A stretch of 64,000 bases of DNA from an uncultured Candidatus Saccharibacteria bacterium (GTDB lineage: Bacteria; Patescibacteriota; Minisyncoccia; Phycocordibacterales; CAIRYW01): the NCBI GenBank assembly GCA_964406475.1, contig CAYORS010000001.1, forward strand, positions 35,881-99,880, in the 5' to 3' direction. The position numbers and the translations under genes are program-made. Below the pieces are notes generated by a model. The model was given only the letters and a program-made list of their open reading frames with translations. It had not been told where the DNA came from and did not search any database. This document shows positions 55,354 to 64,000 of the stretch, one piece after another; position 1 is the first letter of the stretch, and every line of letters begins with the position of its first letter.

Positions 55354-56025
55354 ATGTCAAAACCGATACAAATAGAAAAATCATGGTTCTCTGTTTTGAA
55401 AGACGAATTTTCTAAAGATTATTTTGTTTCATTGAGAGATTTTGTATATCGAGAATATAAGGAATCGATTATTTGCCCCTCACCAAAAAATATTTTTAAA
55501 GCGTTTGATATGTGTCCTTTTGACAAGGTGAAGGTGGTGCTTGTGGGGCAAGATCCTTATCACGGCAAAGACCAAGCGACAGGGCTTTCTTTTTCGGTAC
55601 AAGAGCAGACACTTCTCCCACCATCACTCAAGAATATTTTTAAAGAAATACATGATGATGTGGGAATCAAGACTTTTGCTCATGGAGATCTTTCTCGGTG
55701 GGCAGAGCAGGGGGTGTTACTTTTAAACGCGACACTCACCGTTTCTTTAAACGCACCTGGCTCTCACCAAAAAAGGGGATGGGAAGAATTTACTGACAGT
55801 GTCATTGAAGCATTAAACAACAAAAGGGAAAACCTTGTTTTTATTCTGTGGGGTAATTATGCAAAAAACAAAGGTAAATCAATCGATCGAACAAAGCATT
55901 GTGTCATAGAATCTCCACATCCTTCACCTTTTTCTGCACACAATGGCTTTTTTGGTTCAAAACCTTTTAGTAAGACAAATGAATATTTAAAATCTAAAGG
56001 AATAGGGGAAATAGACTGGAGTTGA
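55354..56025 (+). CDS. ung: Uracil-DNA glycosylase (family 1)
   Basis: Motifs VVLVGQDPYHG and HPSPFSAHNGF. Start at the internal Met. Confidence 0.85.
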   Translation: MSKPIQIEKSWFSVLKDEFSKDYFVSLRDFVYREYKESIICPSPKNIFKAFDMCPFDKVKVVLVGQDPYHGKDQATGLSFSVQEQTLLPPSLKNIFKEIHDDVGIKTFAHGDLSRWAEQGVLLLNATLTVSLNAPGSHQKRGWEEFTDSVIEALNNKRENLVFILWGNYAKNKGKSIDRTKHCVIESPHPSPFSAHNGFFGSKPFSKTNEYLKSKGIGEIDWS

Positions 56026-56054
56026 CTTATTTCTCATTCTGACTAACATTTTAT

Positions 56055-56705
56055 GTGGATGTTTCAATACGAAACTCTCTCATAGTATCGAGAATAGATA
56101 CTTTCCTTGTTCGTTTTATGCACATACTCATTCCTCTGCTCGGTTTTGTGTTTACCATAGTTTTCTGGGGAGAGAAACAAAAGCTTCTTTTTCTACTCAG
56201 AATTATTTATGCCTTTATGGTTCTCAGTCCACTTGCAATTGTGTATCCAGTTTGGTCAAATGACAAATCGGTGGTCACCATCGAAAATGGTAAAGTAGCT
56301 TACCACCCTTTTGGGTATCCGAGGTGGTGTAAACCTTATTCAGTGTCTTCTGATGGAACTTTGTCCACAAAGGTTAATTCGATTGCAATCGGTGCGACTG
56401 ACCACAACATTGTTGGGAAGGCTATCTGTGAAGTGTTGGTTGAATTTGATATTTTAACTTACTGCACTAAGTATGCAAAAGCATCATACATTTGGGATTA
56501 TAAGCTCAAAGAATGGTGTGAGGAGCATAATGTGAGTGGATGGCAGATACTCAAAGAATGGGTGCAGATGGGGATGACCGAAGAGTCAAAACCACTGCTC
56601 ATTCAAAAGCATTTCTCTTTTTTGAAAGCATTGGGTGCTAACCCCACCATTGTTCTCAGATTTGATCCTACAATTGATGTGGGTGAGAGAGCTACAATCC
56701 GATAA
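56055..56705 (+). CDS. Hypothetical membrane protein
   Basis: Two N-terminal hydrophobic helices. No motif. Confidence 0.45.
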   Translation: MDVSIRNSLIVSRIDTFLVRFMHILIPLLGFVFTIVFWGEKQKLLFLLRIIYAFMVLSPLAIVYPVWSNDKSVVTIENGKVAYHPFGYPRWCKPYSVSSDGTLSTKVNSIAIGATDHNIVGKAICEVLVEFDILTYCTKYAKASYIWDYKLKEWCEEHNVSGWQILKEWVQMGMTEESKPLLIQKHFSFLKALGANPTIVLRFDPTIDVGERATIR

Positions 56706-56737
56706 TTGGTTTATCCAATATCGGTTTTTTTATTCTT

Positions 56738-56761
56738 AAATCTGCAAGGGCAGCCTTGCAG
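56738..56761. repeat. Short palindromic repeat copy 1 (aaat-ctgcaagg-gcag-ccttgcag)
   Basis: 8-bp perfect stem. The family recurs at 57861, 59869 and 60291, each at a gene boundary. Confidence 0.5.
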
Positions 56762-56771
56762 CATCACGTTT

Positions 56772-57050
56772 TCATTTGTTTCTGTATTTAATAATGTAGT
56801 GAATATAAATTATCAGAATGAGCAACAGGAGAGCTTGTCCTGAAAAAAGAAAGATATCATGAATGCCATAAAATTTAACAAGAAGAATAAGTCCTCCAAG
56901 TAAGCGAATGATTGTTCCACGCAAAGATACGTCCTCTGAAGATTTGATTCGTTGGATTTCTTGTATCTCGAGCACCAAATCAACACAAAACGCACAGAAG
57001 GCAACTATAGTGCCATAATTGACGATCAAATTTAGGATCTCTTTATGCAT
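56772..57050 (-). CDS. Small membrane protein, hypothetical
   Basis: 92 aa, 2-3 hydrophobic helices. Confidence 0.35.
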   Translation of the reverse strand: MHKEILNLIVNYGTIVAFCAFCVDLVLEIQEIQRIKSSEDVSLRGTIIRLLGGLILLVKFYGIHDIFLFSGQALLLLILIIYIHYIIKYRNK

Positions 57051-57071
57051 AAAACCATTGTATCATAAGGA

Positions 57072-57809
57072 TCAAAAGACGTGGGCGATTGGGTTACAAT
57101 CCGATAATTGATTTTTTAATTCCTGAAGCCGTTTATTAAATAATTCTTTGTCTTTGTATACATCATCTGCAATATAATATTTTTCATCCTCCTGTAATTT
57201 ATCCAACTTTTCCAAACCTTTTAATTTTTTATACTCTTTATTGAAAGTGGCGTTAAAGTACCAAAAGGCTTCTTTTCTGATATCTAGATCAGTATCTAGC
57301 AGGGCAATCAAGAGTAATTCAAAAGATTCTTTCGGTTTTAAACTATAATCGTTTTCTGTAGATACAAAAGTGAGCCCGAGGATCTCCATTTTTCCACTTG
57401 AGAGGTGATTCGGAGTAGTAGGATCTGAATCTACTGTACCCAAAATTGTTTTACAAAATGTAATATACGAATCCAATTCATCCCATTTATACAACACGAA
57501 TCCAACACGAACCTTCACATCTAATCTTATAGCAGATTCAAAGCATTTTTTAAAAACAGGGATAAGGTCTTTTAAATCAAATCTGAAAGCAAGATAGGGT
57601 AATTGCGAACCTTCGCATTTAGAAAGGTATATATTTTGAATTGTAATTTTCTTTGCGACCTCAAGCTCCTCACCATGCAGTTTTAAAGGAAGGCTCAAGT
57701 CATGTTCTCCACGAGCAACATACATATAGTCTTCAAAGTACTGTGTAATAAAAGCAGAAAATTCTGGACTTGGGTTTGTAATTGTGTTTTTTAAACTAGT
57801 GTCGTACAT
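57072..57809 (-). CDS. Hypothetical protein
   Basis: 245-aa ORF flanked on both sides by the short palindromic repeat. Confidence 0.5.
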   Translation of the reverse strand: MYDTSLKNTITNPSPEFSAFITQYFEDYMYVARGEHDLSLPLKLHGEELEVAKKITIQNIYLSKCEGSQLPYLAFRFDLKDLIPVFKKCFESAIRLDVKVRVGFVLYKWDELDSYITFCKTILGTVDSDPTTPNHLSSGKMEILGLTFVSTENDYSLKPKESFELLLIALLDTDLDIRKEAFWYFNATFNKEYKKLKGLEKLDKLQEDEKYYIADDVYKDKELFNKRLQELKNQLSDCNPIAHVF

Positions 57810-57860
57810 ATTTGACTCTTGGGTTGTTGTGAGTATATCACATAAATTTATTAAAAATTA

Positions 57861-57885
57861 AAATCTGCAAGGGTGGTCCTTGCAG
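57861..57885. repeat. Short palindromic repeat copy 2 (aaat-ctgcaagg-gtggt-ccttgcag)
   Basis: Same stem as copy 1 with a different loop. Confidence 0.5.
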
Positions 57886-57929
57886 GATAGATTAGGTATG
57901 GTTGCTAGATTATACCCCCCAGGGGTATA

Positions 57930-58205
57930 ATGAGATGTATGCGTACAGACATCAAACACAAAACAACAAGACGACTCAAAATCATTGAAGGACAAATTCG
58001 TGGTTTACAAAAAATGGTTGACGAAGAAAAATATTGTATTGATATTATTATTCAAACTTCTGCAATCAAAGAAGCTCTGTCTGGGGTTGAGGACCTTATT
58101 CTTGAAAACCACCTCACAACACACATAGTCGAAAAAATAAAAGAGGGTAAGGCAGTGTCTGCTACAAAAGAAATTTTAAAAGTATATAAATTAAAACAAA
58201 AATGA
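57930..58205 (+). CDS. csoR: CsoR/RcnR-family metal-sensing transcriptional repressor
   Basis: KRLKIIEGQIRGLQKMVDEEKYCIDIIIQTSAIKEALSGVEDLILENHL, with the conserved Cys in the YCID segment. Confidence 0.75.
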   Translation: MRCMRTDIKHKTTRRLKIIEGQIRGLQKMVDEEKYCIDIIIQTSAIKEALSGVEDLILENHLTTHIVEKIKEGKAVSATKEILKVYKLKQK

Positions 58206-59866
58206 AAATAAATAAATTTTATATTTTGCTTTTGGTTGTGGTTTTAAGCATCATAGCATTTTTGAGTTATTGGTTTTTTGCTTTACCTATCGCAAGCAAG
58301 TCTTCGGTAGTAAGCCTTAAAACCGGTGATACCTATAATCTTGAAGCCTCATACGTCACAAAACAAATTAACGGCAAAGATCAAAAAATGCTTGCTTACA
58401 ATGGCTCAATTCCTGGTCCAACCATAGAGGTAGAGCAAGGATCAGAGATTACTATTCATTTTGTAAATAACACTGATATGCCTGAGCTTTTGCATTCTCA
58501 TGGAGTGAGAATGGATAATGCTTTTGATGGATCTCATCTTGTTCAAAAAGAAGTAGAACCAGGAGAGTCTTTTGATTATGTTTTGAAGTTTCCTGATGCT
58601 GGAGTGTATTGGTATCATCCTCACATAAACGAAGTTTATGGTCAGGCACGGGGTCTTTATGGTGCATTCATTGTTAAACCAAAAGACAAAAACTATTTTC
58701 CTCCTGTCAACAGACAGGTGCCTCTGATTTTGTCTGATGTTTTGGTTGCCAATGGAAAAATGAGTATTCAAAAAAACACTTCAGACAGTACGCTTATGGG
58801 TCACTATGGAAATGTAATGCTTACTAACGGAGATGAGGACTATACTCTTACAGGCACATCGGGCGAAGTTGTGCGCTTTTATGTGATTAATGCATCAAAT
58901 GCACGACCCTATAATTTTGTGATCAATAATGCAAAGATGAAACTTGTAGGAGGTGATAGTGGTGCATATGAAAAATCCACATACGTGGATTCTATCGTGC
59001 TCGGTCCATCAGAGAGAGCGATTGTTGATGTGTTGTTTGATAAGGAGGGTGCATATAATATCGTGAACAAAACGCCAGACAGGGAGTATATACTCGGTAA
59101 GGTGGTGATTGAAACCGGCAACATTTTAGTCTCTTACAAAAACGAGTTTAATACTCTCCAAATCAACAAAGATACAATCGCAAGTATTGATCCGTTTAGG
59201 CAATATTTTGATAAAAACCCAGACAAAAAAATTTCACTTATTGTAGATATGATGGGGAATATGCGTATGGACAAAAGTATGATGCATACTCATCGTTCAG
59301 ACAATGCTCGCACAAATGACAGTAAAACAGTGAACCTTATGGGAATGAATATGACGATAGAACAGGCGATTGAACATTGTACGTCAATGCCTCAAATGGC
59401 TGGATGTGAACCATATTTAAATAATGATGATAATCAAACTTTGGTTCCTCAAAACACAAAAGAAAGTGATGGTATTGAATGGGAAGATTCTATGCAGATG
59501 ATGAATCAGATGTCTTCAGATAAAAATGTGCAGTGGAAAATTATAGATGATGCAACGGGAAAAACAAATATGAATATTGATTGGACTTTCAAAAAAGGTG
59601 AGCCTGTAAAAATTAGAATATTCAATGATTCCAAATCAATGCATCCAATGCAGCACCCAATACATTTTCACGGGCAAAGGTTTCTTGTTGTTGCAAGAGA
59701 CGGTGTATTGCAAACCAATCTTGTGTGGAAGGATACGGTGATGGTCAAAGCAGGAGAGACTGTTGATATTATTCTTGATCCATCAAATCCTGGTCAGTGG
59801 ATGGCGCATTGTCATATTGCTGAACATCTAAGTAATGGAATGATGTTTGGCTTTAAGGTAGAGTAG
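58202..59866 (+). CDS. Multicopper oxidase (CueO/laccase-like) with N-terminal TM anchor
   Basis: Copper-binding motifs HSHGV, WYHPH, HPIHFHG, HCHIAEH. Confidence 0.8.
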   Translation: MKINKFYILLLVVVLSIIAFLSYWFFALPIASKSSVVSLKTGDTYNLEASYVTKQINGKDQKMLAYNGSIPGPTIEVEQGSEITIHFVNNTDMPELLHSHGVRMDNAFDGSHLVQKEVEPGESFDYVLKFPDAGVYWYHPHINEVYGQARGLYGAFIVKPKDKNYFPPVNRQVPLILSDVLVANGKMSIQKNTSDSTLMGHYGNVMLTNGDEDYTLTGTSGEVVRFYVINASNARPYNFVINNAKMKLVGGDSGAYEKSTYVDSIVLGPSERAIVDVLFDKEGAYNIVNKTPDREYILGKVVIETGNILVSYKNEFNTLQINKDTIASIDPFRQYFDKNPDKKISLIVDMMGNMRMDKSMMHTHRSDNARTNDSKTVNLMGMNMTIEQAIEHCTSMPQMAGCEPYLNNDDNQTLVPQNTKESDGIEWEDSMQMMNQMSSDKNVQWKIIDDATGKTNMNIDWTFKKGEPVKIRIFNDSKSMHPMQHPIHFHGQRFLVVARDGVLQTNLVWKDTVMVKAGETVDIILDPSNPGQWMAHCHIAEHLSNGMMFGFKVE

Positions 59867-59868
59867 TT

Positions 59869-59891
59869 CTTTGTAAGGGTGGTCCTTGCGG
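59869..59891. repeat. Short palindromic repeat copy 3 (ctttgtaagg-gtggt-ccttgcggag; stem kept via G-U pairs)
   Basis: Same gtggt loop as copy 2. Stem changes are pairing-compatible. Confidence 0.45.
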
Positions 59892-59977
59892 AGACAGAGA
59901 CAAATTACGATTTTCAATCTATCTAGGTTTTGTTGTGGACCAATTCAAAATATCTCTGTTATACTTAATGTAATACT

Positions 59978-60277
59978 ATGATAAAACATGATTTAGCTAT
60001 AATTAGAAAGGCGATTAGTGCTGTATCTAAAGAAGCTACACAGTTTAAGAATGACCAAGCTTTAACATCTGTTCTCGCTCAGCTCCGTTATATCGAGGGG
60101 GTTATAAGCGGAGCTGAGTTCGATCTGAGCAAACTTTCTCGTCTGGCGATTGGTGTTACAGCAGTAAAGATGCTTGCTCAAGAATACCCTCATCTTGTTG
60201 ATGTACTTATGGATGCTGATTGTGTAAGTAAAAAGTATATAAAAGTCTATCAACTAACCCATAAGAGTAATAAATAA
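59978..60277 (+). CDS. Hypothetical protein
   Basis: 99-aa ORF between repeat copies 3 and 4. Confidence 0.4.
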   Translation: MIKHDLAIIRKAISAVSKEATQFKNDQALTSVLAQLRYIEGVISGAEFDLSKLSRLAIGVTAVKMLAQEYPHLVDVLMDADCVSKKYIKVYQLTHKSNK

Positions 60278-60290
60278 TAAATCATTCTTT

Positions 60291-60317
60291 AAATCCCCAA
60301 GGGCTGCTCTTGTGGAG
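60291..60317. repeat. Short palindromic repeat copy 4 (degenerate: aaatccccaagggctgctcttgtggag)
   Basis: Shares the aaatc...caaggg...cttg core. Stem partly decayed. Confidence 0.35.
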
Positions 60318-60422
60318 TAAAGTATTATTTCTTTCATATATATAACTGTATGTAATTTGTAATACAGTAAGTATAGTATCGAATCAACTAATTTACATAC
60401 GCCTATTGCTCAATTTTTTATA

Positions 60423-61256
60423 TTAAAAAATTACCTTTTTGAACTGTGTGCAGATATTTTGGAATGAATTATCTGAGAACATTTCTTTAATAAACCCATT
60501 CTTATTCTTCAAAATTTTATTTCTATCCTCATCTGTCATACCACCCTTTCCGTTGATGTATAACACAAAGATATTGTCTGTTTTGAATTCATCAATCATT
60601 TTTTCTGTATTTTCAAAACAATCCGCTACAGATTTAAAACTAGTTGTATTCTCAGACTGAGATATACCTAATAGTATATGTCCATAATCCCCAAAACCAA
60701 GAAAGTTTGCAGGAATAGTGAACAACACCTGAAGACTATTGCAATCATTACCTTCTGTATCGAGGGTAGAAATTTCCAACACAACAGGCACCTGATTAAA
60801 GAATGTAATCGTCTTAAATTTAACAATTTTCTGAAGACCTTTATTATACACAAGCTCTATAGCTTGAAACTGTTTTGCTTCCTTTCTCTTAAGTATGCAC
60901 GTAAATACTTCTGGTTTGTTATTTGAAAATTTTCCTATCTCAATACCAACATAATCACCATCGGATACAAGCCCGTTCTCAACTATTGATTTCTTTATTG
61001 AAATAATCCTTTGCAAATGTTCTGCATCAATCAAATCAGGAATTTCATCTTTCTTTATATTCCTCTTTGCTGGGTCACAAAGCGAGATTGGTGTAGCTAA
61101 GTATGCAATATCAAACTCACCGCGATTAGTGAAGTCTGCATCCGGATTTAAAGCAAAAAGCGAATCAATATCTTGATACTGATCTTTTGTTTCATGTTCA
61201 ATTACAATAAAATTTACTATTTTAGCAATATATTTCATAGTGCAATTATAAACCAA
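60423..61256 (-). CDS. Hypothetical protein
   Basis: 277-aa ORF. No motif. Confidence 0.5.
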   Translation of the reverse strand: MVYNCTMKYIAKIVNFIVIEHETKDQYQDIDSLFALNPDADFTNRGEFDIAYLATPISLCDPAKRNIKKDEIPDLIDAEHLQRIISIKKSIVENGLVSDGDYVGIEIGKFSNNKPEVFTCILKRKEAKQFQAIELVYNKGLQKIVKFKTITFFNQVPVVLEISTLDTEGNDCNSLQVLFTIPANFLGFGDYGHILLGISQSENTTSFKSVADCFENTEKMIDEFKTDNIFVLYINGKGGMTDEDRNKILKNKNGFIKEMFSDNSFQNICTQFKKVIF

Positions 61257-61461
61257 AAAAACTCTTTATCAATCAAATACTGTTTAGTTTATTTGAGAGC
61301 AGATTTTGACTCAACTTCCCGATATAATTCAAATGCATCAACACTACTTCATAATTGACTTATACGCGGTTTTACCATCGAACAGTACTTTTATATAAGA
61401 ATTATCCGGAATAGCATATTTACTATCTTTTGTTGAATAATATTTTTCTGTAGTGTGATAA

Positions 61462-62145
61462 AAATTGTACCCTTCACTGTCTTTGGTAACTTTCTCAATT
61501 ACAAATGAAAAGTTTCTTCTAATGATCCTTGGTTCACAAGCAAAGCTTGAAAATGATAACAGAGGAATTAATGTGAAGAGGGGGCTTCGAACTCGAGTTG
61601 AAACGGGATTGTAGCCTGGAGTCGCACCTGTTGGATACTTGAATGAAAAGCATATGGATAGGAAATGTCAGGTGAGATTAGATCTGGATAGGGCACCAAT
61701 AGTTAAAAAGATTTTTGAGAAGATGGGGTACGAGAAGTGGTCAGGTAGGAAAATATATCACTGGCTTAAATTCGAACTTAATTTCAAGACGGTGGGGAAT
61801 CACAATCTTGCACTGGGCAATATATACAGAATGCTCCAGTGTGCTTTCTACACAGGAACATTTGAATATCCAAAGGGAAGTGGAAATTTTTATCTAGGTA
61901 AACATGAACCAATTGTTGATAAAGAACTGTTTGCAAAAGTTCAGGAACAATTAAAGAGAGATAATATACAAAGAGAAAACAAAGAATTCGCATTCACTAA
62001 ATTATTTACATGTGGATACTGTGGAAGTGGAATATCGGCAGAAGAAAAATGGAAACAATTAAAAGATGGTACTCACACAAAATATATTTATTGTGGTTGT
62101 TCAAGCAACTGTAAGGGCCGCTCCTGCTGGTTTACGGACTATTAG
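61462..62145 (+). pseudogene. Remnant of a large serine recombinase (Recombinase domain plus zinc-ribbon only)
   Basis: The catalytic resolvase domain is absent. Translation ...PVGYLNEKHMDRK...APIVKKIFEKM...LALGNIYRMLQCAFYTGTFEYP...HEPIVDKELFAKVQEQLKR...FTCGYCGSGIS...YIYCGCSS matches the Recombinase plus Zn_ribbon_recom regions of phage-type serine integrases. The frame is interrupted by an in-frame TAG at 61612-61614. The ORF-track start at 61639 is a TTG. Confidence 0.6.
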
Positions 62146-62170
62146 GTTGTGTTGATGTATAATATAAACT

Positions 62171-62989
62171 ATGACTAAATATATTATTCTCAGTTCTATT
62201 ATTTTACTCGGGACTTTGTGGTTTGTGTTAAATATGCTTGGAAGGCGCAATGTCATAGATTTGCAAAACGAGCCTAGAGATATTGATGTACAGGCATCAA
62301 GCAAGCTTGATGGTGGCGAGGTGACACTTGGTGCACAATTTGTAATTCCCGAAGATAAATATATAACGGTAACATCTGCTGATGGGGGCCCGCTTTTTAA
62401 GATTCAGAAAACACAAAACCAAGTGCTGCTCGGATACATCAAACATCTCTACGATTTTCGTGATGCTGAAGAAAAGAGAAGTGGCAAAACATCGTTCAGG
62501 AGTACTTATGCTGGATACGATGTTGCTTCACTTATAGATCCTAAGTCAGATACCCCCTCTCCGCTCAAAGACTTTTTTATGAAAAATACTGTGGTGTTAC
62601 AATCCTCAGGGACTGGCGATCTTCCTATTGTGACGGTATTTTATATTGATGGTAATGCGTATGCTCTCTATTCTTCTCCAGAAGGGCCAAATGGAGAGAA
62701 TATTCAGTCTGGCAAATTCATTATTGTTAATTATACGAAAGAGATGTCGGAGAGGATTGGGGCCTCTGTTTCTGGTGTACAGAGTGCGGTGGTGGACTGG
62801 ACTGCAAGTGGCTATGAGCTTACATCTAGTGTGAATCCTCCAATCTACTATATTCAAAGAATATATCGCTCAACAAGCGAAAACAAGATCAAAGTATCAG
62901 TCAAAACATATTTAAAAAGCAAGAGTCAATATGAGCTCCAGATAGACCCTCAGACATTAAAAGTTGTTGATGTTGTGGAGCTTGAGTAG
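62171..62989 (+). CDS. N-terminally anchored or secreted hypothetical protein
   Basis: N-terminal hydrophobic segment MTKYIILSSIILLGTLWFVL. Confidence 0.5.
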   Translation: MTKYIILSSIILLGTLWFVLNMLGRRNVIDLQNEPRDIDVQASSKLDGGEVTLGAQFVIPEDKYITVTSADGGPLFKIQKTQNQVLLGYIKHLYDFRDAEEKRSGKTSFRSTYAGYDVASLIDPKSDTPSPLKDFFMKNTVVLQSSGTGDLPIVTVFYIDGNAYALYSSPEGPNGENIQSGKFIIVNYTKEMSERIGASVSGVQSAVVDWTASGYELTSSVNPPIYYIQRIYRSTSENKIKVSVKTYLKSKSQYELQIDPQTLKVVDVVELE

Positions 62990-63200
62990 GGAGTGGCGAG
63001 AGTTTCGACCTCGAAATTCTATATGCTGTTGCATATAGAATTTCTCTTCACTGGTTTTCGCTTCGCTTGTTACTACAAGCTCAATGCGAAAACCGTTCGA
63101 ATCTCACCCGTGTTTGCTTCGCAAACATTTCCTCTCGCAAAGTAAAAGTCCGCCCTATTAAGGCGGACTAAACTTTGCGGAGGCTCTCGAGTTCGGACTT
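62989..63200. repeat. Orphan copy (locus D) of the T-loop-plus-hairpin repeat module, not adjacent to a tRNA
   Basis: gaaaaccGTTCGAATCTCACCCgtg, then hairpin tgtttgc-ttc-gcaaaca, then nested hairpins cctctcgcaaagt...agtccgcc-ctattaa-ggcggact...actttgcggagg. Preceded by a 13-bp IR aaattctatatgc/gcatatagaattt. Confidence 0.4.
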
Positions 63201-63325
63201 TTTAGTTCATTGCATCACAAGGCTTTTCTAATGTTTTTTATAATATCACGACGAGGTATCTCGAGCATACAACTTTTCTTAAAAAAGTGACAAAAGTGAC
63301 AGTAGTTCGGTTTTAATTCCTTGAA

Positions 63326-63946
63326 TTAAATAAGTGTAATAAATTGAAGTATAAATCCGAGTACGAGTAAAATTGCTCCTATAACTCCCCACTTTCTTTG
63401 AGCAAGGCGATCCTGTACTTGAGGAAGTTTAAGTTTTTCTTCCTCAGTATCTCCGGACCATCTTGAAACTCCTAACCTTATCGCTTCAGCTTTAGAAATA
63501 AATAAACCCTTTGCAAATGCAATGCTCCCTAAAAAACTTAATACGATACCTGAAATATTTAGATAACGATCAATACCAACCAGAGAATAGGTGGACACAG
63601 TAAACATTTCAAATAAAGAAATCCAAGGAATTGTAGAAAACATTAGTGCAAGATATATAAGAATAAATATCTTTGGTACGTGAAGTTCAATATGACTAAA
63701 AGGCCAATAGACCTTTTTATCTTTACCTCTACCCAACATTTCCCATTCAGTATCGTACAGAGCCAATGGTAATCTCATCTCAATCGCATGTATCACTTTA
63801 AACTTTGCACTATTTAACCCTTTATATGAAGCAATAATTCTATACCATAGATAACAAATTGTTATTCCTGCTATCGCAGATAGACCTAGTATAAAACTGA
63901 TCTCCTGAGCATTAGCTCTAGTTGCAATAAAGCCGAGAAGTGTCAC
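63326..63946 (-). CDS. Polytopic membrane protein, hypothetical (possibly N-terminally truncated by the window end)
   Basis: 5-6 hydrophobic helices. No firm family call. Confidence 0.45.
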   Translation of the reverse strand: MTLLGFIATRANAQEISFILGLSAIAGITICYLWYRIIASYKGLNSAKFKVIHAIEMRLPLALYDTEWEMLGRGKDKKVYWPFSHIELHVPKIFILIYLALMFSTIPWISLFEMFTVSTYSLVGIDRYLNISGIVLSFLGSIAFAKGLFISKAEAIRLGVSRWSGDTEEEKLKLPQVQDRLAQRKWGVIGAILLVLGFILQFITLI

Positions 63947-64000
63947 AAGTCCAGTATTTAGACCTAGAAAAAATTCATTGGTTTTTTGTCTTCGGTCACT

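Follow-up and report, generated by a model that had tools for sequence, protein, structure and literature searches.

The 64,000 nucleotides (nt) considered here, referred to at their full length as the window, belong to contig CAYORS010000001.1 (assembly GCA_964406475.1, positions 35,881 to 99,880) of an uncultured Candidatus Saccharibacteria bacterium and exhibit a G+C content of ~37%. In an accessory region of this DNA, four copies of a short hairpin, named c1 to c4, are located at gene boundaries (Table 1), as the initial annotation had reported. Reading of positions 56500-60600 places all of them in intergenic DNA, as singlets and in one orientation (+ strand). The spacings between successive copies are 1123, 2006, and 424 nt, i.e., 0.4-2 kb from one singlet to its neighbour, and the intervals hold protein-coding genes: a 245-amino-acid (aa) gene and a 92-aa open reading frame (ORF), then csoR and a multicopper oxidase gene, and finally a Tsi6-like gene. 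The copies had been said to delimit the 245-aa gene, and this gene is indeed bounded by c1 and c2, although the 92-aa ORF shares the interval. The first copy is flanked by convergent genes, starting 10 nt past the U-run of a canonical terminator and ending 10 nt short of the stop codon of the 92-aa ORF on the minus strand. The second separates two divergent genes, the 245-aa gene at a distance of 55 nt and csoR at 44 nt, and the csoR promoter and an operator-like palindrome are downstream of this copy. In turn, c3 starts 5 nt after the stop codon of the multicopper oxidase gene, and c4 starts 18 nt after that of the Tsi6-like gene.

Table 1. Hairpin copies, neighbouring features of the window, and transposase gene units of other genomes
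Feature	Position	Strand	Description
c1	56738..56761	+	AAAT flank, then perfect hairpin CTGCAAGG-GCAG-CCTTGCAG; arms 56742-56749 / 56754-56761
c2	57861..57885	+	AAAT flank, then perfect hairpin CTGCAAGG-GTGGT-CCTTGCAG at 57865-57885
c3	59868..59894	+	Degenerate copy TTGTAAGG-GTGGT-CCTTGCGG, core 59871-59891; stem extendable to 59868-59894
c4	60291..60315	+	Marginal, decayed copy: AAAT + CCCCAAGG-GCTGC-TCTTGTGG at 60295-60315
Possible fifth copy	62109..62133	+	CTGTAAGGGCCGCTCCTGCTGGTTT, strongly decayed, not significant
Canonical terminator upstream of c1	56699-56731	+	U7; serves the + strand gene
tRNA-Arg	53139-53213		Anticodon GCG; start of the accessory stretch
Y1 units of ~0.72 kb	L125 9951-10674; L127 9951-10680; L129 9957-10678; L075 6199-6922; L091 3301-4043		Two 21-nt hairpins

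In the element, a stem of 8 bp and a loop of 4-5 nt make up a hairpin of 21 nt, which is accompanied by ~12 nt of A/T-rich 5' flank. The flank AAATC, previously ascribed to every copy, is present at c1, c2, and c4, where AAAT precedes the stem, whereas c3 carries GTTC in its place (GTTCT with the following base). Alignment reveals a longer flank, ATTCTT(T)AAATC, common to c1 and c4. The stem of c3 is kept on the + strand by three G.T pairs and its loop, GTGGT, is identical to that of c2, both of which had been described correctly; the stem of c4 contains one C.T mismatch and one G.T pair. Folded as DNA, c1 reaches -8.9 kcal/mol (z = -4.1), its - strand being equally stable, and c2 reaches -8.7 kcal/mol (z = -5.5), so that both copies, on either strand, fall at about -8.5 to -8.9 kcal/mol with z from -3.5 to -5.5. 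Folding of c3 is confined to the + strand (RNA, -13.5 kcal/mol; DNA, -4.0 vs -1.9 kcal/mol on the - strand), and c4 folds moderately as DNA (-5.5 kcal/mol on the + strand and -6.5 kcal/mol on the - strand). A search of Rfam returned no family match at the hairpins.

These copies form a genuine and local repeat family. The core pattern CAAGG-N3-7-CCTTG matches three times in the window against 0.2 expected, a number that none of 100 shuffles reached. Among the perfect 8-bp hairpins of the window, c1 and c2 are the sole pair sharing a stem sequence, all other gene-end hairpins being different, and a generic search of the 64 kb for hairpins with eight pairs and AGG/CCT on the inner side recovered c1-c3 only. 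Moreover, a fuzzy search of the window allowing up to seven errors detected no further copy outside 56.7-60.3 kb, apart from a strongly decayed candidate at the 3' end of a recombinase-fragment ORF; this possible fifth copy is a seven-error match (nhmmer E ~0.5-0.8) that has lost the ability to form a hairpin. A chance origin of the family core is thus excluded by the core count compared with shuffles, the shared stem, and the lack of other copies. Of the four copies, c1 and c2 are perfect, c3 is degenerate, and c4 is marginal. In a hidden Markov model (HMM) search built from c1 and c2, the best non-self matches were c4 (E = 0.039) and c3 (E = 0.62), the membership of the latter being secured by the loop that it shares with c2. 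Overall, four and possibly five copies are concentrated within 5.4 kb, with none elsewhere in the 64 kb, and the proposed confinement to the accessory region holds within the 70 kb examined.

The same stem is found in other genomes, in several cases next to a transposase gene. A scan of 185,579 genomes, one per species, with the pattern ATCTGCAAGG-N4-5-CCTTGCAG yielded 86 loci, the majority of them due to chance, coding sequence, or terminators of unrelated bacteria; in no species genome does the exact flanked pattern occur at more than two loci. Five of the 86 loci carry a homologous Y1_Tnp gene of ~220 aa (hmmsearch E 1e-35 to 1e-121), and at four of these five (L075, L091, L060, and L065) the hairpin brackets the gene or clusters round it. 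In L075 and L091, both from Patescibacteria metagenome-assembled genomes (MAGs), identical CTGCAAGG-CAAGA-CCTTGCAG hairpins closely frame the Y1 gene, one on each side, and in L065 three copies surround it. A Dehalococcoidia MAG (L060) shows the stem of the window in a different phylum, with five copies of CTGCAAGG-ACGGA-CCTTGCAG in the order hisG, two hairpins, Y1 gene, two hairpins, hisD, and one hairpin, which punctuate the gene boundaries of the span 1927-4180 as they do in the window. At the fifth locus, L015, an exact-stem copy is located ~1.4 kb downstream of the Y1 gene, which has covarying hairpins of its own, a variant CTTCAGGG/CCCTGAAG found inside and at the end of its reading frame.

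The genome of this last locus, MAG H41-bin046_1, contains CCTTCAGGG-TCTCA-CCCTGAAGG at 5609-5633 of L015, in frame in the Y1 ORF and encoding DLQGLTL, and the variant recurs at 6063-6085, at the C-terminal end of the ORF. The same MAG carries CTGCAAGG-TCTCA-CCTTGCAG at position 7554 of L015 and at position 2840 of L006, which belongs to another contig. Two variants of the stem thus share one loop within this genome, which also has a Y1 gene together with an orphan hairpin on a different contig. Orphan copies at gene ends with no Y1 gene nearby were found in other Patescibacteria MAGs (L006, L024, L042, L062, and L088). In L024, the orphan CTGCAAGG-TAAGA-CCTTGCAG is nested at 790-852 in a longer imperfect inverted repeat, GGTCGTCAAATAAAATTTAAAT ... 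AATTAAATTTTATTTGACGACC, which may represent a longer form of the element resembling a miniature inverted-repeat transposable element, and it lies ~0.4 kb from a zeta-toxin gene (1243-1974). As for controls, none of 52 loci with the same stem, taken from viral and metagenome scans, holds a Y1 gene. The viral contigs gave 25 chance or terminator matches when scanned with the bare stem, and one distant Y1 protein, lacking a hairpin, when scanned with the Y1 alignment.

Y1 genes that were fetched via the protein alone lie in core-gene neighbourhoods, e.g., with gatB, rpiB, rpsB, and smc, and the units observed are one per locus in conserved core contexts. Their hairpins occupy two positions, namely 23-30 nt before the ATG and overlapping or directly after the stop codon. 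The flanking stems, CTACTAGG/CCTAGTAG in L125, CCGCTAGG/CCTAGCGG in L127, and CTGCTAGG/CCTAGCAG in L129, retain an 8-5-8 geometry through compensatory changes. The loop may face either way with respect to the gene (CAAGA or TCTTG), and the gene-flanking copies of other genomes have no common 5' tetranucleotide. Counted over 16 distinct hairpins, pairing amounts to 98.4% of cells, with double changes in four of the eight pairs, figures whose independent part is the orthologous positions beside the Y1 gene, several of the hairpins having been found by requiring pairing. Such compensatory changes across genomes speak for a folded hairpin and against a duplex of fixed sequence. When a covariance model of 11 external hairpins, none of them from the window, was run on the window, it ranked c2 at the top (25.5 and 23.9 bits) and c1 next (23 bits, E ~0.006), followed by a match of 13.6 bits; this result is in part circular, as the stem of the window had served to retrieve seven of the training stems.

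The protein family itself is large, with more than 7,800 homologues matched. The best 120 of them are listed at 65% identity or more to the Nomurabacteria query, and their source names, where given, are Nomurabacteria, Paceibacterota, or Patescibacteria group, with the exception of one labelled as an archaeon. The Pfam domain is Y1_Tnp (IS200-like), both the HUH motif (NHFH) and the tyrosines in Y..Y.HLNP are conserved, and one member is named "REP-associated tyrosine transposase" (RAYT, where REP stands for repetitive extragenic palindromic) by NCBI. The best NCBIfam match is NF047646, a RAYT equivalog, albeit below its cut-off (40 vs 80 bits). At the sequence level, the Y1 profile matched the PDB only weakly, in the HUH region of ISDra2 TnpA, and a fold search was needed. 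An AlphaFold model obtained from 45 homologues (pLDDT, the predicted local distance difference test score, 80.7) predicts a RAYT-like fold: its best match is the structure of the E. coli RAYT in complex with a REP hairpin (4ER8, E 1.8e-4), followed by the IS608, ISDra2, and IS200 transposases. The 245-aa protein of the window was also considered as a hidden Y1 enzyme and rejected, as it shows no convincing alignment to the Y1 family and no family match; its structure model (pLDDT 49.6) is too poor to use.

Taken together, c1-c4 are probably orphan REP-type hairpins, two intact and two decaying, of the kind recognised by RAYT-like Y1 transposases of Patescibacteria. The REP-like character suggested by the initial annotation is therefore supported, as the same stem brackets RAYT-like Y1 genes in other genomes. 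The HUH Y1 enzymes, such as IS608 TnpA and the E. coli TnpA_REP, bind their hairpin in single-stranded DNA and nick beside it. Based on this chemistry, a RAYT-like Y1 transposase would bind the hairpin folded in single-stranded DNA, e.g., at the replication fork, and would nick beside it by means of its catalytic tyrosine. The hairpin could then be copied or moved into nearby extragenic DNA, leaving dispersed orphans at gene ends. Such dispersal to nearby extragenic sites would account for the punctuated boundaries of neighbouring genes, as around the Y1 gene in L060. The copies of the window would be non-autonomous orphans in an island adjacent to tRNA-Arg that tolerates insertions, and their influence on transcript ends or on the stability of mRNA, if any, would be a secondary matter. 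We infer that this genome has or had the cognate enzyme, which spread c1-c4.

The reference systems for this comparison are the E. coli TnpA_REP and the REPIN-RAYT of Pseudomonas, REPIN being the name of inverted REP doublets (PMC3337134, PMC5581495). Like these, the present system features short extragenic palindromes repeated in a genome (four intergenic copies here), a palindrome that in other genomes flanks an apparently single-copy Y1/HUH gene among housekeeping genes, and an enzyme whose predicted fold is nearest to 4ER8. Its singlet copies decay, as REP singlets do (PMC3337134). However, there are also clear differences: the stem, of 8 perfect base pairs, closes a loop that varies, and a 5' tetranucleotide of the GTAG type is absent; the copies are same-orientation singlets instead of inverted doublets; their number, where counted, is very low compared with the tens to hundreds dispersed in REP/REPIN genomes; the Y1 enzyme, of ~220 aa with a C-terminal extension, scores below the NCBIfam cut-off for RAYT; and the host phylum is Patescibacteria, with no RAYT in the 70 kb round the window copies. 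In enterobacterial REPs, the GTAG tetranucleotide adjoins the foot of the hairpin, and REP-RAYT systems have been described mainly from Proteobacteria. The system would thus work like REP-RAYT without being a member of the classical families, from which the absence of REPIN doublets, GTAG, and high copy number separates it.

The ends of insertion sequences (ISs) of the IS200/IS605 group, and their gene-less derivatives, palindrome-associated transposable elements (PATEs), are likewise similar. In other genomes, the Y1 gene lies between two similar subterminal hairpins on one strand, forming a unit of ~0.72 kb, and among the fold matches the TnpA structures of IS608 and ISDra2 rank next; in addition, orphan hairpins could be solo ends. 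By contrast, the apparently single-copy Y1 gene, present once per locus among core genes, is not seen as multi-copy identical units, the loops of the flanking hairpins have no fixed orientation relative to it, and the window hairpins enclose unrelated genes, or nothing IS-like, where an IS would carry a Y1 tnpA gene and a PATE short non-coding DNA alone.

Several observations weigh against the assignment of c1-c4 to such orphan hairpins. Neither tblastn nor a six-frame profile search detected a Y1 gene, whether in the window or in the adjoining 6.4 kb past its end. The window copies and the transposase-linked hairpins have the same stem because the pattern used in the search required it, and the window loops (GTGGT and GCAG) are unlike those of the gene-flanking Patescibacterial copies, which are of the CAAGA kind. 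The external covariance model reached neither c3 (at E <= 10) nor c4. Furthermore, a metagenome scan with the loop variants of the window, CTGCAAGGG-YRG(N)-CCTTGCAG, returned 27 loci, all of them unrelated high-GC, terminator, or coding sequences with no Y1 gene and no similarity to the island. Finally, three loci of 20 kb each contain two gene-flanking copies only, and owing to this low copy number the system comes closer to IS200-like ends accompanied by a few orphans than to a classical, high-copy REPIN population.

The system is most likely of a known sort, REP-RAYT, which has not yet been described for the tiny genomes of Patescibacteria, i.e., the candidate phyla radiation (CPR). In a full-text literature search, no paper linked REP sequences or REPINs with Patescibacteria or CPR, and the sole match for "REP-associated tyrosine transposase" together with Patescibacteria was a transposase next to rbcL in an archaeon. 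Starting from four hairpins, the analysis led to a large Patescibacterial Y1 family with a core-gene setting, covarying bracketing hairpins, and a predicted fold closest to RAYT. If confirmed, this would mean that even streamlined genomes of less than one megabase keep a domesticated single-strand transposase together with its hairpins, and it would offer a very simple setting, with two hairpins and few orphans, for testing the co-evolution of RAYT and hairpin. In annotation, hairpins of this kind from CPR islands should be taken neither for terminators nor for attC sites.

Among the other explanations, the best-surviving one, although unlikely, is that the copies are transcript-end elements (terminators without a U-tract, 3'-end stabilisers, or insulators) whose sequence is shared through local duplication. 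All copies are G+C-rich intergenic hairpins near stop codons, and secondary roles of this sort are known for enterobacterial REPs. The reported absence of a T-run is correct for the + strand, but on the - strand the AAAT flank reads ATTT, which gives c1 and c4 short A/T-rich tails and c2, alone among the copies, a pass in a simple terminator scan; in addition, the pairing of c3 is kept by G.U pairs on the + strand directly after the multicopper oxidase stop codon. Nevertheless, the + strand gene upstream of c1 already has a canonical U7 terminator, c2 sits between divergent promoters, where no transcript ends and no gene lies upstream, and ~65 other genes of the window have unique hairpins or none. 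The hairpins are not ordinary independent terminators either, since unrelated terminators would not share a stem sequence. Nor is there a consistent RNA strand. In L132, a 98%-identical strain variant, c2 is kept with three T>C changes, which produce an A.C mismatch if the + strand folds and a G.T pair if the - strand does; pairing is thus broken on the + strand, whereas in c3 it is broken on the - strand. A strand-specific RNA structure deduced from the three G.U pairs of c3 was rejected, since three of three on one strand is a 1 in 8 chance and the bias of c2 in L132 is opposite, so that these pairs are not evidence for a + strand RNA. Moreover, a transcript-end role leaves unexplained why the same stem brackets Y1 transposase genes elsewhere.

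A further proposal, which we regard as quite improbable, holds that the hairpins are recombination sites bounding gene cassettes, integron-like or IS200/PATE-like with cargo, and acted upon by an HUH enzyme or by the serine recombinase of the island. Successive units are each bounded by a same-orientation copy, the c1-c2 unit with its 92-aa and 245-aa genes mimics the hairpin-gene-hairpin layout of the Y1 unit, and the region is mosaic, with recombinase fragments and a 42-nt relic repeat of a gene 3' end. There is also a likeness to attC, namely folded single-strand sites that bound consecutive promoterless-looking genes in an accessory region. Yet the hairpin is absent beside six loci of multicopper oxidase homologues (60-71% identity) and beside homologues of the 245-aa protein at 65% and 43% identity, and the cassette reading raised initially therefore finds no support; because homologous genes in other genomes lack the hairpins, these are not cassette-borne. 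Furthermore, attC sites are 57-141 bp long, with R''/L''-L'/R' boxes and extrahelical bases, and travel with the cassette near intI, whereas the site in the window is a far shorter 21-nt hairpin with no attC boxes and no integron integrase. Its 8-4/5-8 geometry is unfit for the core sites of tyrosine or serine recombinases, and the recombinase genes present are fragments. A related and similarly faint prospect is that the hairpins are the ends of cargo units moved in single-stranded form by a Y1/HUH transposase, i.e., a CPR cassette shuffling based on IS200/RAYT chemistry and analogous to integrons. The c1-c2 unit with the 245-aa gene would then be a transposase-less derivative in which cargo replaced the Y1 gene.

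An operator function, in which the 8-N4/5-8 palindrome would be bound as double-stranded DNA by a dimeric regulator of the island, appears highly implausible. Perfect inverted repeats as arms and the position of c2 between two divergent promoters would suit it; however, three of the four copies are at gene 3' ends, the spacer of 4 or 5 nt alters the phasing of the half-sites, csoR has its own operator-like palindrome (57911-57929), and the compensatory stem changes across genomes point to a folded hairpin. Clustered regularly interspaced short palindromic repeats (CRISPR) are rejected on the spacings given above, with genes in between in place of regular spacers of ~25-50 nt, and Xer/dif-like sites and serine-recombinase att sites are ruled out on geometry and sequence. 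Hence, the earlier exclusion of CRISPR, attC, and ordinary terminators stands.

The hairpins are part of an accessory stretch. Core genes (polA, holA, rluD-like, fpg, ruvA, and rpsT) run up to the tRNA-Arg gene, past which there are a SoFic-type Fic defence gene (E 4e-108), a uracil-DNA glycosylase (UDG)-family gene, and hypothetical genes, together with csoR and the multicopper oxidase, the Tsi6-like immunity gene, and a serine recombinase fragment. The nearest homologues of the multicopper oxidase, where named, are mostly from Patescibacteria or Minisyncoccia, and together with the G+C content they suggest a genome of the Patescibacteria type. The stretch extends beyond the end of the window, where 8xMP and ThsB-TIR are accompanied by an S24 peptidase, another truncated recombinase, and genes for copper export (cupredoxin, HMA-DsbD, and a copper ATPase). 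This island, spanning 53486-64000 of the window and 14524-20390 of L001, is a mosaic of defence, immunity, and metal genes. Its Tsi6-like gene has no obvious toxin partner, both of its serine-recombinase genes lack the catalytic N-terminal domain, and neither a tyrosine integrase nor an integron integrase is among the island proteins examined.

Some further features of the region were observed. A 42-nt direct repeat (79% identity) occurs at 56671-56712 and 57073-57114, the latter copy being a relic of the last 13 codons and the stop of a relative of the 216-aa gene. The antisense of this relic encodes the last 13 residues of the 245-aa ORF, which are unaligned to its 65% homologue. The repeat looks like the scar of a rearrangement by which the terminator, c1, and the 92-aa membrane ORF arrived. 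At 57911-57929, a G/C palindrome resembling a CsoR operator, TATACCCC-CCA-GGGGTATA, shares bases with the -10 box of the promoter predicted for csoR (TTGCTA-18-TATAAT, 57902-57931), and L132 has one change inside this palindrome. The 3' end of tRNA-Arg (TGGGAGCACCA) constitutes the first part of a perfect 29-bp palindrome with a 1-nt loop (53203-53231 / 53233-53261), an inverted copy of this 3' end lying 40 nt downstream; the palindrome could be a strong terminator, or the scar of an integration or inversion at the tRNA. Finally, a tRNA at 48757-48832 (- strand) scores 72.7 bits in Rfam, and its anticodon is read as UUA ("tRNA-Stop") by ARAGORN, which makes it a candidate for an ochre-suppressor-type tRNA or for a mis-assigned anticodon.

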